From: Dehalococcoidia bacterium
GTDB taxonomy: Bacteria > Chloroflexota > Dehalococcoidia > UBA2979
DNA: 64,000 nt
Direction: 5' to 3'
Assembly: GCA_965262725.1 (NCBI GenBank)
Contig: OZ253555.1
Span: forward strand, 1,248,001-1,312,000
A program made the translations under genes and the position numbers. Shown piece after piece: positions 53,297 to 57,823 of this stretch (the first letter of the stretch is position 1; each line of letters opens with the position of its first letter). The notes beneath the pieces were generated by a model. It saw nothing but the letters and a program-made list of their open reading frames with translations, was not told the origin of the DNA and did no database searches.

Positions 53297-54628
<1,332 letters not shown>

Positions 54629-54705
54629 CGTCCGCGCCGATCGGGGTCCCGAACCGCTCATCTCCCGGGGTGGCGCCGACGGCGGTGCATGCGCCGCGCG
54701 CGCGA

Positions 54706-54711
54706 TATGCT
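54706..54711 (+). promoter_or_regulatory. Candidate -10 element (TATGCT) for a leaderless transcript starting at ATG 54718
   Basis: TAnnnT plus 6 nt plus ATG, the same geometry as priA, hemW and several other genes in this window. Confidence 0.55.
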
Positions 54712-54717
54712 CCCCCG

Positions 54718-55699
54718 ATGACGCAATCATCCACGTCGCGCGGATGCCGCGGCCTCCCCGACGGGATCGCGACGGCGCGCGCGTCGCTTCACGCCGTGTT
54801 CGAGTCCGTGCTGCGTGCGTCCGGAAGTCGAAGGGGTGGTGACGTGATGACGTGACCGGTCCGGAGACATGCTCGTTGCTGCCAGCCGGTGAGAGTCCGG
54901 CACGGGTAACTGTCAGGAGGCCCGTTAGCAGGTCGGCGGCGTGGACGGGAAACGGTCTGCGTCGAAGCCCGACGTCAAGAGCCCTATGAGGGGGAGCAAA
55001 CGTGCGGTCCGCAGCATGACGCGAAGTCTGCCGCGCCGTGAGACTCGCCTGTCTATTGACAGGACCAAGGAGGAGCCGAGCCCGGGTGGTCAGGGCGAAG
55101 GCCATGGACGAGGTGAAGATCCTGGAATGCAGCCTCAAGAAACCTCCCGGCGTATGGGACGTGGAACGTACGGAAGGTAGCGACGGGAACCGGAGAAGCC
55201 CTCCCCGGCCCGGCACCCTGTGAGAGGGCGTCGGAGCGAGGCGTCCTATAACCGGTCAGAGCCGGGAAGTGGACAGCCAGCCGGAAGGGTGGCGGAGGGG
55301 GTCGTAGTACCGCTGGAGCCGGACGGACAACATAACCGCCGGTGATGGGAAGGACCCCTACTTTGTCCGTGCATGTTGCTGGGGGTGTGGACTGGTGAGT
55401 GCCCCTCGGGGCTAGCAACCACTTGGTAGGGTTCGAGGCTCTCCGCACATGCTGTACCGGCTGGCCAAGGCACGACCCACGTTGTGGGGAGCGCTGCATG
55501 CCATCTGGTGAAGGGCATCGGTGAGCCGGATGAGGGAGAACCTCACGTCCGGTTCGATGTGGCAGGGGCTGGAGACGGACGCTGCTATGGCCGTGGAGTT
55601 GGGCACCACCGGGAAACCGGCTTGGAACTGATGCGCCACCGCCTACGGCTCGCACCGCGCCAGCCCCTGACCCTACCGTGGAGGATCCGGTCCGTATGA
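54718..55699 (+). CDS. Putative intron-split 39-aa leader ORF (exon 1 54718-54814, exon 2 55677-55699)
   Basis: Joined exons read MTQSSTSRGCRGLPDGIATARASLHAVFESVLPWRIRSV*. 33 of 38 codons after the ATG end in G/C. The stop TGA 55697-55699 overlaps the nadK ATG. Confidence 0.45.
54815..55676 (+). mobile_element. ORF-less group II intron (self-splicing ribozyme, IIB-like, resembling bacterial class E/F)
   Basis: 5' GTGCG. Domain V GAGCCGGATGAGGGAGAACCTCACGTCCGGTTC (55523-55555) has the AGC triad and AC bulge. Domain VI stem CAGGGGCTGG/CCAGCCCCTG has a candidate branch A at 55670, and the 3' end reads CCCTAC. Domain III GGGGGTCGTAGTACC...GGGAAGGACCCC is present. No RT ORF. Confidence 0.92.
55431..55511 (+). 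pseudogene. Fused N- and C-terminal stubs of the deleted intron-encoded reverse transcriptase/maturase
   Basis: In domain IV: VRGSPHMLYRLAKARP-TLWGALHAIW*, resembling the VRxLQxxLYRAAK N-terminus and the ...HA..* end just before domain V in intron RTs. Confidence 0.6.
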
Positions 55700-56568
55700 G
55701 CGCGCGCCGCGTCGTTGTCTGCTACCACCCCGGCATCGCCGGCGCGCGTGACCTGGCGGAGGGGATCTCGGAGCAGCTCCGTCGCGCCGCGTGCGAGCCG
55801 TGGATCGTCCCGCTCGGCGACGAGGGCGCGGTGGGCGTCGATCTCGCGGCTCAGGCGGAGGGCGCCGCTCTCCTGGTCTGTGTGGGAGGCGACGGAACCG
55901 TCCTGCGTGCCTCGGAGGCGGCGGGCCTCACCGGCACCCCGATCTTCGGCGTGCGCATGGGGCGCCTCGGCTTCCTGACGGAGGCGACGCCGCCGGGCGC
56001 CCAGTCGGCGCTCTCGAGAGTCCTCGCCGGCGAGGGGCGCGTCGAGGAGCGTGCACTGGTGCTCGCCACCATCGACGGCGGCGAGCCGTTGCACGCGCTC
56101 AACGACGTTGTGATCGGGCGTCGCTCGCTTGGGCACACGATCTCGGTCGGTGCGCGGCTCGACGGCGTTCTGATCGCCGAGTACCGCGCCGACGCCGTCA
56201 TCGTCGCGACCGCCACCGGCTCCACCGGCTACACGCTCTCGATCGGCGGGCCGGTGCTCACGCCGACGTCGCGGGAGCTGATCCTGATGCCGCTCGCGCC
56301 GCACCTGACGTCGCACAACCCGCTCGTCCTGCCCGGCGACACGAGGATTTCGCTCGAGGTCGCGCGCGGCGATGGGATGGTGGTCGTGGACGGCGTGCAC
56401 GAGCGCGCCATCGAGTCGGGCCAGCGCATCGAGGTGACAGGTTCGCCGCGCCGCGCCCGCTTCGCTCGGCTCGGGGACGAGGGTCAGTTCTATTCGAATG
56501 TCGCCGATCGGCTCGGCTGGCTTCGCTCCGACCACACGCTCGGCGCCGCGGGCGGCGAGCGACAGTAG
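55696..56568 (+). CDS. nadK: NAD(+) kinase
   Basis: GGDGTVL, MGRLGFLTE, ALNDVV, DAVIVATATGSTGYTLSIGGP. Confidence 0.95.
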   Translation: MSARRVVVCYHPGIAGARDLAEGISEQLRRAACEPWIVPLGDEGAVGVDLAAQAEGAALLVCVGGDGTVLRASEAAGLTGTPIFGVRMGRLGFLTEATPPGAQSALSRVLAGEGRVEERALVLATIDGGEPLHALNDVVIGRRSLGHTISVGARLDGVLIAEYRADAVIVATATGSTGYTLSIGGPVLTPTSRELILMPLAPHLTSHNPLVLPGDTRISLEVARGDGMVVVDGVHERAIESGQRIEVTGSPRRARFARLGDEGQFYSNVADRLGWLRSDHTLGAAGGERQ

Positions 56569-56690: not shown

Positions 56691-57266
56691 ATGATCGAGG
56701 GCGAGACCAGTGCGATCGCGCCGCAGCCGGGGACGGGTCCGGCCGGGGTGCGGATCGAGCGAGCCACGGTGCACGACGCGCGCGACATCTGCGCGCTCAT
56801 CAACGTGTGGGCGGCGCAGGGGCAGATGCTGCCCCGCACGCTCGGCGAGACCTACGAGAACATCCGGGACTTTTTCGTCGTGCGGGAAGGCGGACGCCTC
56901 GTCGGCTGCGCCGCGCTCCACATCACATGGTCCGATCTCGCCGAGCTCAAGTCGCTCGCCGTGGATGAGCAGCGCCAGTCGTCGGGGTACGGTCGGGCGC
57001 TGGCGGAGGCGTGTGTCGCCGAGGGCCGGGCGCTCGGGCTTCAGCGGCTTTTCGCGCTCACCTATCGACCCGGCTTCTTCGAGCGGCTCGGCTGGGAGCA
57101 GGCCGACGTGATGTCGCTCCCGCGCAAGGTCTGGAACGAGTGCTACCGCTGCCCGAAGTTCCCGGGCTGCGAGGAGATAGCGATGGTCCTCGATCTCGAC
57201 GAGTCCTCCGCTCCCCTCACGCCACTGCCGCTCGCGACCGATCGCGGGGACGGCTCCGGCGCGTGA
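56691..57266 (+). CDS. argA: Short GNAT-type amino-acid N-acetyltransferase (N-acetylglutamate synthase-like)
   Basis: MLPRTLGETYENIRDFFV, LAELKSLAV, LFALTY, LPRKVWNECYRCPKFPGCEEIAM. Confidence 0.8.
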   Translation: MIEGETSAIAPQPGTGPAGVRIERATVHDARDICALINVWAAQGQMLPRTLGETYENIRDFFVVREGGRLVGCAALHITWSDLAELKSLAVDEQRQSSGYGRALAEACVAEGRALGLQRLFALTYRPGFFERLGWEQADVMSLPRKVWNECYRCPKFPGCEEIAMVLDLDESSAPLTPLPLATDRGDGSGA

Positions 57267-57823
57267 GTAACGCCCCGGGGCCGACTGTTGTCACGAGGGA
57301 GAGGCTCCTCTCGACGAGGACCGTCGATGTGGAGCGCTCGCTGTTCCGCCTCGCGGACGGCCGCGAGACGGAGCGGATCGTCGTGCGGCACCCGGGCGCG
57401 GTCGCGATCGTCGCACTCGACGACCAGGAGCGGTGGCTCCTCGTGCGGCAACATCGCTACGCCGCCGGCCGCGAGCTCCTCGAGATCCCCGCCGGCACGC
57501 GTGAGCCGGGCGAGGCACCCGAGGTGACTGCTGCACGCGAGCTGCGGGAGGAGACGGGCTTCGCTGCGCGGGACCTCACGCCCCTCGGTGGCTTCTACAC
57601 TGCGCCCGGGTTCTGCGACGAGTTCATTCATCTCTTTCTCGCGCGCGGGCTCACCCGGGACCCTCTCCCCCAGGACCACGATGAGGAGATCAGCGAGCCG
57701 GTCGCAGTCACACCGGCCGGGGTCCTTAGCGCTGCGGCGTCGGGCGAGATCGAGGACGCGAAGACGCTCTCGGCGGTCGCGCTGATGTCCGCGCGAGGTG
57801 GGCCCGGAGCGCCGCGGCCGTAA
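57263..57823 (+). CDS. NUDIX hydrolase (ADP-ribose pyrophosphatase-like)
   Basis: VRHPGAVAIV, QHRY, EIPAG...AARELREETG, APGFCDE, IEDAKT; GTGA overlap with the argA stop. Confidence 0.9.
   Translation: MSNAPGPTVVTRERLLSTRTVDVERSLFRLADGRETERIVVRHPGAVAIVALDDQERWLLVRQHRYAAGRELLEIPAGTREPGEAPEVTAARELREETGFAARDLTPLGGFYTAPGFCDEFIHLFLARGLTRDPLPQDHDEEISEPVAVTPAGVLSAAASGEIEDAKTLSAVALMSARGGPGAPRP

Follow-up and report, generated by a model that had tools for sequence, protein, structure and literature searches.

A recently inserted group II intron without an ORF splits a putative tlyA-derived leader frame ahead of nadK in a Dehalococcoidia bacterium

Results

A group II intron interrupts a short reading frame that ends on the nadK start codon

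The stretch of DNA analyzed here (64,000 nt of contig OZ253555.1, assembly GCA_965262725.1, from a Dehalococcoidia bacterium; hereafter, the window) belongs to a genome of 3.67 Mb (G000). On its forward strand, 19 nt upstream of the ATG of nadK, the NAD kinase gene, it carries a group II intron that lacks an open reading frame (ORF). The intron splits a short frame that we call the micro-ORF. The ATG of the micro-ORF (54718) follows a –10-like TATGCT (54706–54711) with a 6-nt spacer, within a promoter/start block at 54680–54722 that predicts transcription to start at or near 54718. Exon 1 (54718–54814) holds 32 codons plus 1 nt; the 862-nt intron follows (54815–55676), with GTGCG at 54815 and ...CCTAC at 55676 as its ends; and exon 2 (55677–55699) closes with a TGA (55697–55699) that overlaps the nadK ATG in the sequence ATGA (55696–55699). 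Read without splicing, the micro-ORF continues 13 codons into the intron to a TGA at 54853–54855, giving a 45-aa product that ends ~840 nt short of nadK. Joining 54814 to 55677 gives a 39-aa frame with its TGA on the nadK ATG; the GC fraction at the first, second, and third codon positions of the joined frame is 0.59, 0.64, and 0.87.

Sequence reading and translation confirmed every coordinate in the preliminary description of this locus, including the micro-ORF/nadK junction that is restored when the exons are joined. Its remark that 4-nt stop-start overlaps are common in the window was also borne out, with up to 19 candidates between long frames of high GC at the third codon position (a rough count). 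It had further cautioned that nadK possesses a Shine–Dalgarno (SD) sequence of its own, and we find this GGAGG at 55680–55684, 11 nt before the ATG. The ATG too is in the 3′ exon. Because the GGAGG lies wholly in that exon and is ancestral, splicing does not create the ribosome-binding site.

The nadK gene (55696–56568; Pfam NAD_kinase and NAD_kinase_C) is present in a single copy, being the sole NAD_kinase_C match in G000. NAD kinase is usually essential. Upstream lies clpX (53297–54628; Pfam zf-C4_ClpX and AAA_2), which is the upstream neighbor in relatives as well. Downstream, an ORF at 56691–57266 (Pfam Acetyltransf_1) is followed by a NUDIX hydrolase gene at 57263–57823 (Pfam NUDIX), whose likely GTG start sits on the stop of the preceding ORF (GTGA, 57263); all of these genes are on the forward strand. 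This pair had been described as argA-NUDIX. The NUDIX assignment holds, while for argA the domain match supports a GNAT acetyltransferase and nothing narrower.

The intron is a domain IV deletion derivative

Rfam model RF02003 (group-II-D1D4-4) matches 54883–55019 on the forward strand, a part of domain I, with 102.8 bits (E 7.8e-22, cut-off 49). The domain V/VI model RF00029 scores 37.5 bits on 55521–55676, slightly below its cut-off of 40 because of a ~90-nt insertion in domain VI. Domain V forms a canonical hairpin at 55523–55555, as judged from cmscan alignments and folding, and domain VI an unusually long hairpin of ~112 nt (55561–55672) with a bulged A at 55670, 7 nt before the 3′ splice site. 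The domain VI fold has a z-score of –3.4, and 0 of 200 shuffles equal it. This domain is ~3 times the usual length, and its extension is found also in the parent introns described below (92% identity, positions 682–862). A minimum-free-energy fold of the whole intron (z –2.3, 1 of 20 shuffles as good) was left out of the domain assignment. The conserved group II ends are present, GUGYG-type at the 5′ end (GUGCG) and AY-type at the 3′ end (..CUAC), and no long ORF encoding a reverse transcriptase (RT) lies within the 862 nt. The boundaries were fixed twice independently, by the ends of the genomic copies (BLAST) and by a contig that skips exactly these 862 nt. The element in the nadK leader is thus a group II intron without an ORF, in sense orientation, as had been proposed.

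Positions 1–664 and 666–862 of the intron are collinear with a 2073-nt ORF-containing intron in a genome of the same genus (G003), in which ~1.2 kb separates the two matches. Since ~1.2 kb is missing at position ~665 relative to the G003 intron, we conclude that the 862-nt form is a domain IV deletion derivative; the breakpoint, at which the RT ORF was lost, maps to 55478–55480 by comparison with ORF-bearing relatives. The last ~16 nt of exon 1 form the target of the intron, with an intron-binding site 2 (IBS2) motif CGAGTC at –14 to –9 and an IBS1 that ends in ..CTGC. We found by reading a candidate exon-binding site 2 (EBS2), GACUCG at 55042–55047, which complements the CGAGTC of the target sites and is unpaired in the centroid fold.

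The intron at nadK is one of ~28 copies from a recent burst

A BLAST search of G000 with the 862-nt intron returned 24 intact copies that are 100% identical and 4 that are interrupted or truncated, and similarity to the genomic copies begins exactly at 54815 and stops exactly at 55676. Thirteen intact and 3 interrupted copies lie inside RT-encoding parent introns, always at the same position. The parents fall into a type of ~87% identity (12) and a type of ~80% identity (3), and 15 of 15 are occupied; the 862-nt intron and the G000 parents are 87% identical over positions 1–664 and 92% over positions 666–862. Removing the inner copy restores a frame of 461 codons with RVT_1 and GIIM and no endonuclease domain (Pfam), for which the best PDB matches are group II RTs of 427–428 aa (E 1e-25 to 1e-27). 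At this home site the inner intron interrupts a conserved RT motif in phase 1. As all 15 parents are interrupted in that motif, no cognate RT can be produced until the inner intron has been spliced out. An example of a parent is L011 406–3341 (G000:C1), with the inner intron at 1522–2383.

Of the 41 genomes searched, G000 alone yielded the 862-nt form. Three of the 41 (G003, G008, and G018) hold ORF-containing relatives of 78–90% identity, a fourth (G016) has a weak fragment only, and the 2073-nt intron of G003 is uninterrupted. We identified 12 ectopic sites in G000, with the nadK leader among them. Together with the home site these make 13 distinct targets with a common motif, CGAGTC-like bases at –14 to –9 and C-Y-R-C at –4 to –1. 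The intron came to the nadK leader because this site resembles the home site in both parts of the motif (CGAGTC and C-Y-R-C).

The 11 other ectopic sites were checked for open frames across the insertion point, and 10 flanking ORFs from 9 of these sites were run on Pfam. At 7 of the 11 sites a gene could be named from its Pfam domains; relative to the intron, four of these genes are in sense orientation and three in antisense. Of the 10 flanking ORFs, 3 had no Pfam match. The sense targets are an RNase_T exonuclease, another RT gene, a giant ORF with cadherin domains, and a DUF429 gene (weak match). The antisense targets are a histidine kinase split between HisKA and the rest, a gene of the phosphotriesterase (PTE) family split close to its end, and an IS630-like transposase region. 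The histidine kinase copy (L016, G000:C1:1018206–1019067, after HAMP/HisKA) and the phosphotriesterase-family copy (L052, G000:C1:537614–538475) are presumably knock-outs. Because antisense copies cannot be spliced from the mRNAs of their host genes, the burst is selfish, with collateral damage. Judged from its sequence and that of its sisters, the intron at nadK is a recent selfish insertion, and the identical, dispersed copies suggest that they were mobilized in trans by a driver RT.

Some copies have unusual arrangements. Two identical copies form a head-to-tail tandem at one home site (G000:C1:549500–551223, L012). The second copy has the 3′ end of the first as its 5′ flank, which suggests that targeting requires only the 5′ exon. 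Elsewhere (G000:C1:733701–736485) the nesting is triple, with a parent-held copy that is split after position 722 by an element of ~1.9 kb; this element starts with GTGCG, has a GIIM-matching ORF (26.9 bits), and is probably a third group II intron. Further truncated or split copies lie at G000:C1:408952–409808, 291159–294653, and 1391132–1393205, with foreign elements of 1.2–2.6 kb, and two flanks among these three are similar in sequence, suggesting an insertion sequence.

Intron-less relatives keep the ends of the micro-ORF

We found clpX and nadK adjacent and without an intron in three genomes of the same genus, G001, G002, and G003 (loci L024, L023, and L022). The TATGCT-N6-ATG block is conserved in all three, with 33–38 of 44–45 nt identical over the 45 nt before the ATG. 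The frame that it opens is 27 codons long in L024, 34 in L023, and 26 in L022, and each ends in a TGA that overlaps a nadK GTG (GTGA). The expectation that intron-less relatives would keep the micro-ORF is therefore supported for the promoter/ATG block and the stop-on-start junction. With the window counted, all four micro-ORF alleles (39, 26, 34, and 27 codons) share the ATG, the frame, and the stop-start overlap. The body between start and stop is heavily reshuffled, such that pairwise alignments need 4–8 gap runs. A GGAGG or GGGAGG stands 8–15 nt before the nadK GTG in L022, L023, and the G004 locus (L025) introduced below. As judged from these alleles, the micro-ORF is older than the intron. 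A metagenome scan with NadK gave 16 loci, 3 of them close: L055 repeats the G003 allele, while L056 and L057 keep a tlyA that ends with GTGA on nadK. The scan thus added no further independent micro-ORF allele.

The micro-ORF is best read as the two ends of a lost tlyA

Elsewhere in the family, most genera have a gene of 250–300 codons that separates clpX from nadK and whose stop falls on the nadK start. In a further genome of the same genus, G004, the intervening gene encodes TlyA, an rRNA methyltransferase (Pfam S4 and FtsJ, 137 bits), and its stop overlaps nadK. Ahead of the ATG of this tlyA stands the GCGCGATATGCTCCC block that also precedes the micro-ORF of the window, and the window at 54680–54722 matches the tlyA start of L025 with 82.6% identity (BLAST, E 1.8e-5). 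The G004 TlyA query had no match in G000–G003 (completeness 92, 85, 73, and 93%), and the FtsJ family gave only two weak partial matches in G000. From these comparisons, the micro-ORF is best read as the start and the end of tlyA that remained after an internal deletion.

A tlyA gene next to nadK has a precedent in Mycobacterium, where the gene order is tlyA-ppnK(nadK)-recN (PMC3072309). Here, as there, tlyA stands directly upstream of the NAD kinase gene, with which it forms one transcription unit in Mycobacterium. In contrast to the order in Mycobacterium, tlyA has shrunk to 26–39 codons in the micro-ORF alleles, and nadK in the window is trailed by the GNAT and NUDIX genes rather than by recN.

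A contig joined exactly at the intron boundaries is present in another sample

Four sequencing runs (X1, X2, X5, and X7) were examined as assembled contigs, which show presence and cannot show absence, and which give no transcription start, level, or strand. In X7, from another sample and study, a contig of 2278 nt (depth 3.6) joins 54813/4 to 55676/7 and skips exactly 862 nt. It has 2 differences from the window in ~1.1 kb of flank, none near the junction. The longest X7 contig is 91 kb, which suggests that the run is DNA, although DNA and RNA cannot be told apart. If it is DNA, the joint would represent a near-identical strain with an empty site; if it is RNA, the joint would represent exact splicing. 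In either case, it confirms the boundaries and indicates that the exons did not change after insertion. Small shares of X1, a sponge metatranscriptome, and of X2 gave matches only to intron pieces or domain-V-like stretches; one X1 contig of 263 nt (depth 2.9) is identical to 54966–55228, which is not evidence of habitat or expression. Contigs of X5 are considered in the Discussion.

The start of the micro-ORF has the geometry of leaderless genes

TANNNT-N6-ATG/GTG opens a frame of at least 100 codons 127 times in G000, compared with ~65 times at other spacings, an enrichment of ~2-fold that is consistent with frequent leaderless starts in this genome. The exact TATGCT-N6-ATG arrangement precedes 4 of 4 micro-ORF alleles and the G004 tlyA, and TANNNT-N5–8 precedes the tlyA starts of G004 (L025), L026, L027, L030, and L037. 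We therefore treat the micro-ORF, which has no SD sequence before its ATG, as a putative leaderless gene.

Two known systems share parts of this geometry. Leaderless short ORFs head polycistronic mRNAs in mycobacteria (bioRxiv 10.1101/834739), and they resemble the micro-ORF in having a –10 box a few nucleotides before the 5′-terminal AUG and a short first ORF. In contrast to them, the micro-ORF has no evident sensing codons (such as a Cys run) and appears to be a remnant of a lost gene, tlyA. Second, the 4-nt stop-start overlap with the next gene is that of the ATGA/TGATG gene pairs of PMC6728339, of which 13 of 14 tested were strictly coupled, with a variable contribution of the SD sequence. 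By analogy, translation of the micro-ORF is likely to be coupled to that of nadK.

Discussion

We favor, with a probability of about 70%, a reading in which a recent selfish intron sits in a tlyA-derived leader ORF that feeds nadK and in which the dependence of nadK on splicing is accidental. The proposed history begins with an ancestral tlyA-nadK pair in the family, with the tlyA stop over the nadK start and a leaderless-type tlyA start, the latter seen in five of the relatives examined. In the sublineage of G000, the body of tlyA would have been deleted while the promoter/ATG and the stop-on-start junction stayed, leaving a micro-ORF of 26–39 codons. The micro-ORF would still be translated, and ribosomes that enter at its 5′ AUG would be passed to nadK by termination-reinitiation. 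Very recently, the 862-nt intron would have entered the tlyA-derived 3′ part of the micro-ORF. Once spliced, the transcript would again have the 39-codon frame with its ATGA junction. Ribosomes on an unspliced transcript would halt 13 codons into the intron, and nadK would be left with its own GGAGG at the long spacing of 11 nt. Excised Ll.LtrB can use EBS/IBS pairing to re-open exons after their ligation, which lowers the mRNA level (PMC6003770); by analogy, the ~24 identical excised introns might re-open the ligated nadK leader. Splicing capacity may be a bottleneck as well, since no cognate maturase gene can be expressed before its own transcript has been spliced. Under this history it is plausible that the dependence of nadK on splicing is a by-product of the insertion and not an evolved regulator.

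Several observations weigh against this reading. EBS1, expected as GUGG, was not located by reading, and no systematic scan for it was made. The IBS1 at the nadK site departs from that of the home site at –3, –5, and –7. In X5, both intron-exon junctions are unbroken, and there is no spliced joint among the contigs. In local alignments of the four micro-ORF peptides with G004 TlyA, 131, 28, 73, and 238 of 300 shuffles equal them; because this similarity is not significant, the derivation from tlyA rests on position, promoter/start homology, and synteny. The preliminary description had put the chance of frame agreement at about 1 in 3. With 4 of 4 alleles in frame the figure falls to ~1/27 if the three length changes are neutral, which is suggestive only because the alleles are few and related. 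Moreover, two of the three frames are free of stops there anyway, so the informative signal is length modulo 3. A simple scan of 54500–55800 for promoters and terminators returned none of either kind; since the conserved TATGCT itself escaped it, the scan is uninformative for this organism. Finally, the GGAGG of nadK might allow unspliced RNA to be translated.

Much of the same evidence would suit an intron that is purely a passenger, with nadK translated from its own GGAGG and ATG whether spliced or not, or transcribed from a promoter that lies inside the intron or beyond it, and with the micro-ORF an untranslated relic that stayed in frame by chance. The GGAGG in the 3′ exon is ancestral, the frame statistic is modest and two of three frames are open in any case, the micro-ORF peptides are not conserved among alleles, and the X5 contigs run unbroken over both junctions. 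We nevertheless consider a pure passenger unlikely. The promoter/ATG block and the exact stop-on-start junction persist in all four alleles despite the reshuffled body, the coupling seen in 13 of 14 overlapping pairs was strict even with an SD sequence present (PMC6728339), an SD spacing of 11 nt is long, and a scan of the intron, albeit an insensitive one, showed nothing promoter-like. A different outcome is that the copy at nadK is not spliced at all, for want of strong IBS1 pairing or of maturase, and is a mildly deleterious polar mutation that awaits purging. This fits the IBS1 that differs from the home site, the interruption of every parent RT/maturase ORF, the lack of a spliced joint in X5, and the co-existence of an intron-less allele in another sample. 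It sits poorly with a sequence identical to that of copies whose recent movement required splicing, with an IBS2 motif that matches the home site perfectly, with further matches to the home site at –1, –2, and –4, and with two other ectopic sites whose final seven bases, GTGCTGC, are those of the nadK site. A strong block would also be costly at a single-copy, usually essential gene, and we regard a dead copy as improbable.

The preliminary description had proposed a candidate splicing-gated switch with a maturase, Mg2+, or temperature as its input. As an evolved switch, the intron would be maintained at this site because such inputs act through splicing to adjust nadK and the genes behind it. 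The mechanics are plausible, and the geometry that was described is real: the intron is in sense orientation, and the coupled arrangement is restored only after splicing. Splicing of the group II intron Ll.LtrB is condition-sensitive (PMC7293003), and with all cognate maturase genes split by the same intron, splicing capacity could be limiting. The genomic evidence nonetheless leaves this proposal very little room. The nadK copy is 100% identical to 23 others whose flanks are unrelated, and its site is one of 12 ectopic sites explained by target similarity. At least two sister insertions disrupt genes. At the nadK site, the three congeners with the micro-ORF lack the intron, as does the X7 allele, in which the exons beside the junction are unchanged. 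No sensor is evident, Rfam found no riboswitch in the window, and the ribosome-binding site is ancestral and not built by splicing. An evolved switch is thus, in our estimate, highly improbable.

A further reading is that the genome carries a closed loop of splicing dependence. In such a loop, the single-copy nadK would be translated efficiently only after splicing, while all cognate maturase genes (15 of 15) are split by the same intron inside a conserved RT motif. We put this forward as a speculative and, on balance, doubtful proposal. If it is true, the splicing capacity of the intron would be self-limiting and would incidentally gate the supply of NAD kinase, and the locus would be a natural, polymorphic bacterial case in which translational coupling depends on splicing, with the intron-less sister allele as a control.

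The closest parallel to the intron itself is TeI3/TeI4 of Thermosynechococcus elongatus, ORF-less introns that arose by domain IV deletion and were mobilized in trans to many copies (PMC2882425). The two cases share the ORF-less derivatives with a domain IV deletion, the many copies, the identical inner copies in RT-encoding introns (twintrons), and the small number of insertions in host genes. Unlike in TeI3/TeI4, the inner intron of G000 is deep in the RT ORF, in phase 1 and in an RT motif, and not between two alternative ATGs, and so no bypass start is available. Whereas T. elongatus keeps two uninterrupted ORFs, 15 of 15 parents are occupied here. The present genome also differs in being high in GC and non-cyanobacterial, and in that one copy splits the leader ORF of a housekeeping gene.

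For host genes that need splicing, the established example is Ll.LtrB in a lactococcal relaxase gene, where host-gene expression requires splicing that is condition-sensitive and aided by the intron-encoded protein (PMC7293003, PMC6003770). Unlike Ll.LtrB, which has its own protein and splits the coding body of a mobile-element gene, the intron described here has no ORF and lies in a non-conserved leader ORF. Because it is in a leader ORF, only translational coupling is at stake and not protein sequence. Bacterial housekeeping loci seldom carry group II introns, for reasons that are debated (PMC6003770).

In Clostridioides difficile, Lee et al. (2010, Science) reportedly found a c-di-GMP-II riboswitch with a group I ribozyme, in which the outcome of splicing is said to decide downstream translation. 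The present locus is similar to that case in having a bacterial intron in the leader ahead of a gene. It differs from that group I system, with its ligand sensor and its splicing-assembled ribosome-binding site, in that no sensor is evident and the ribosome-binding site is intact in the 3′ exon. A limited literature search, which is no proof of absence, found no description of a group II intron inside a bacterial upstream ORF.

For the biology of this lineage, we see three points. A protein-less intron derivative now sits in each of its helper genes. The survival of tlyA as a start and a stop argues for selection on translating into nadK and provides an example of a leader ORF that may have come from gene decay. 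Finally, a recent insertion beside a single-copy nadK, together with a near-identical empty allele, could make the cost of broken coupling measurable with the protein sequence untouched. We conclude that the value of the locus is that of a natural experiment, and not of an evolved regulator.

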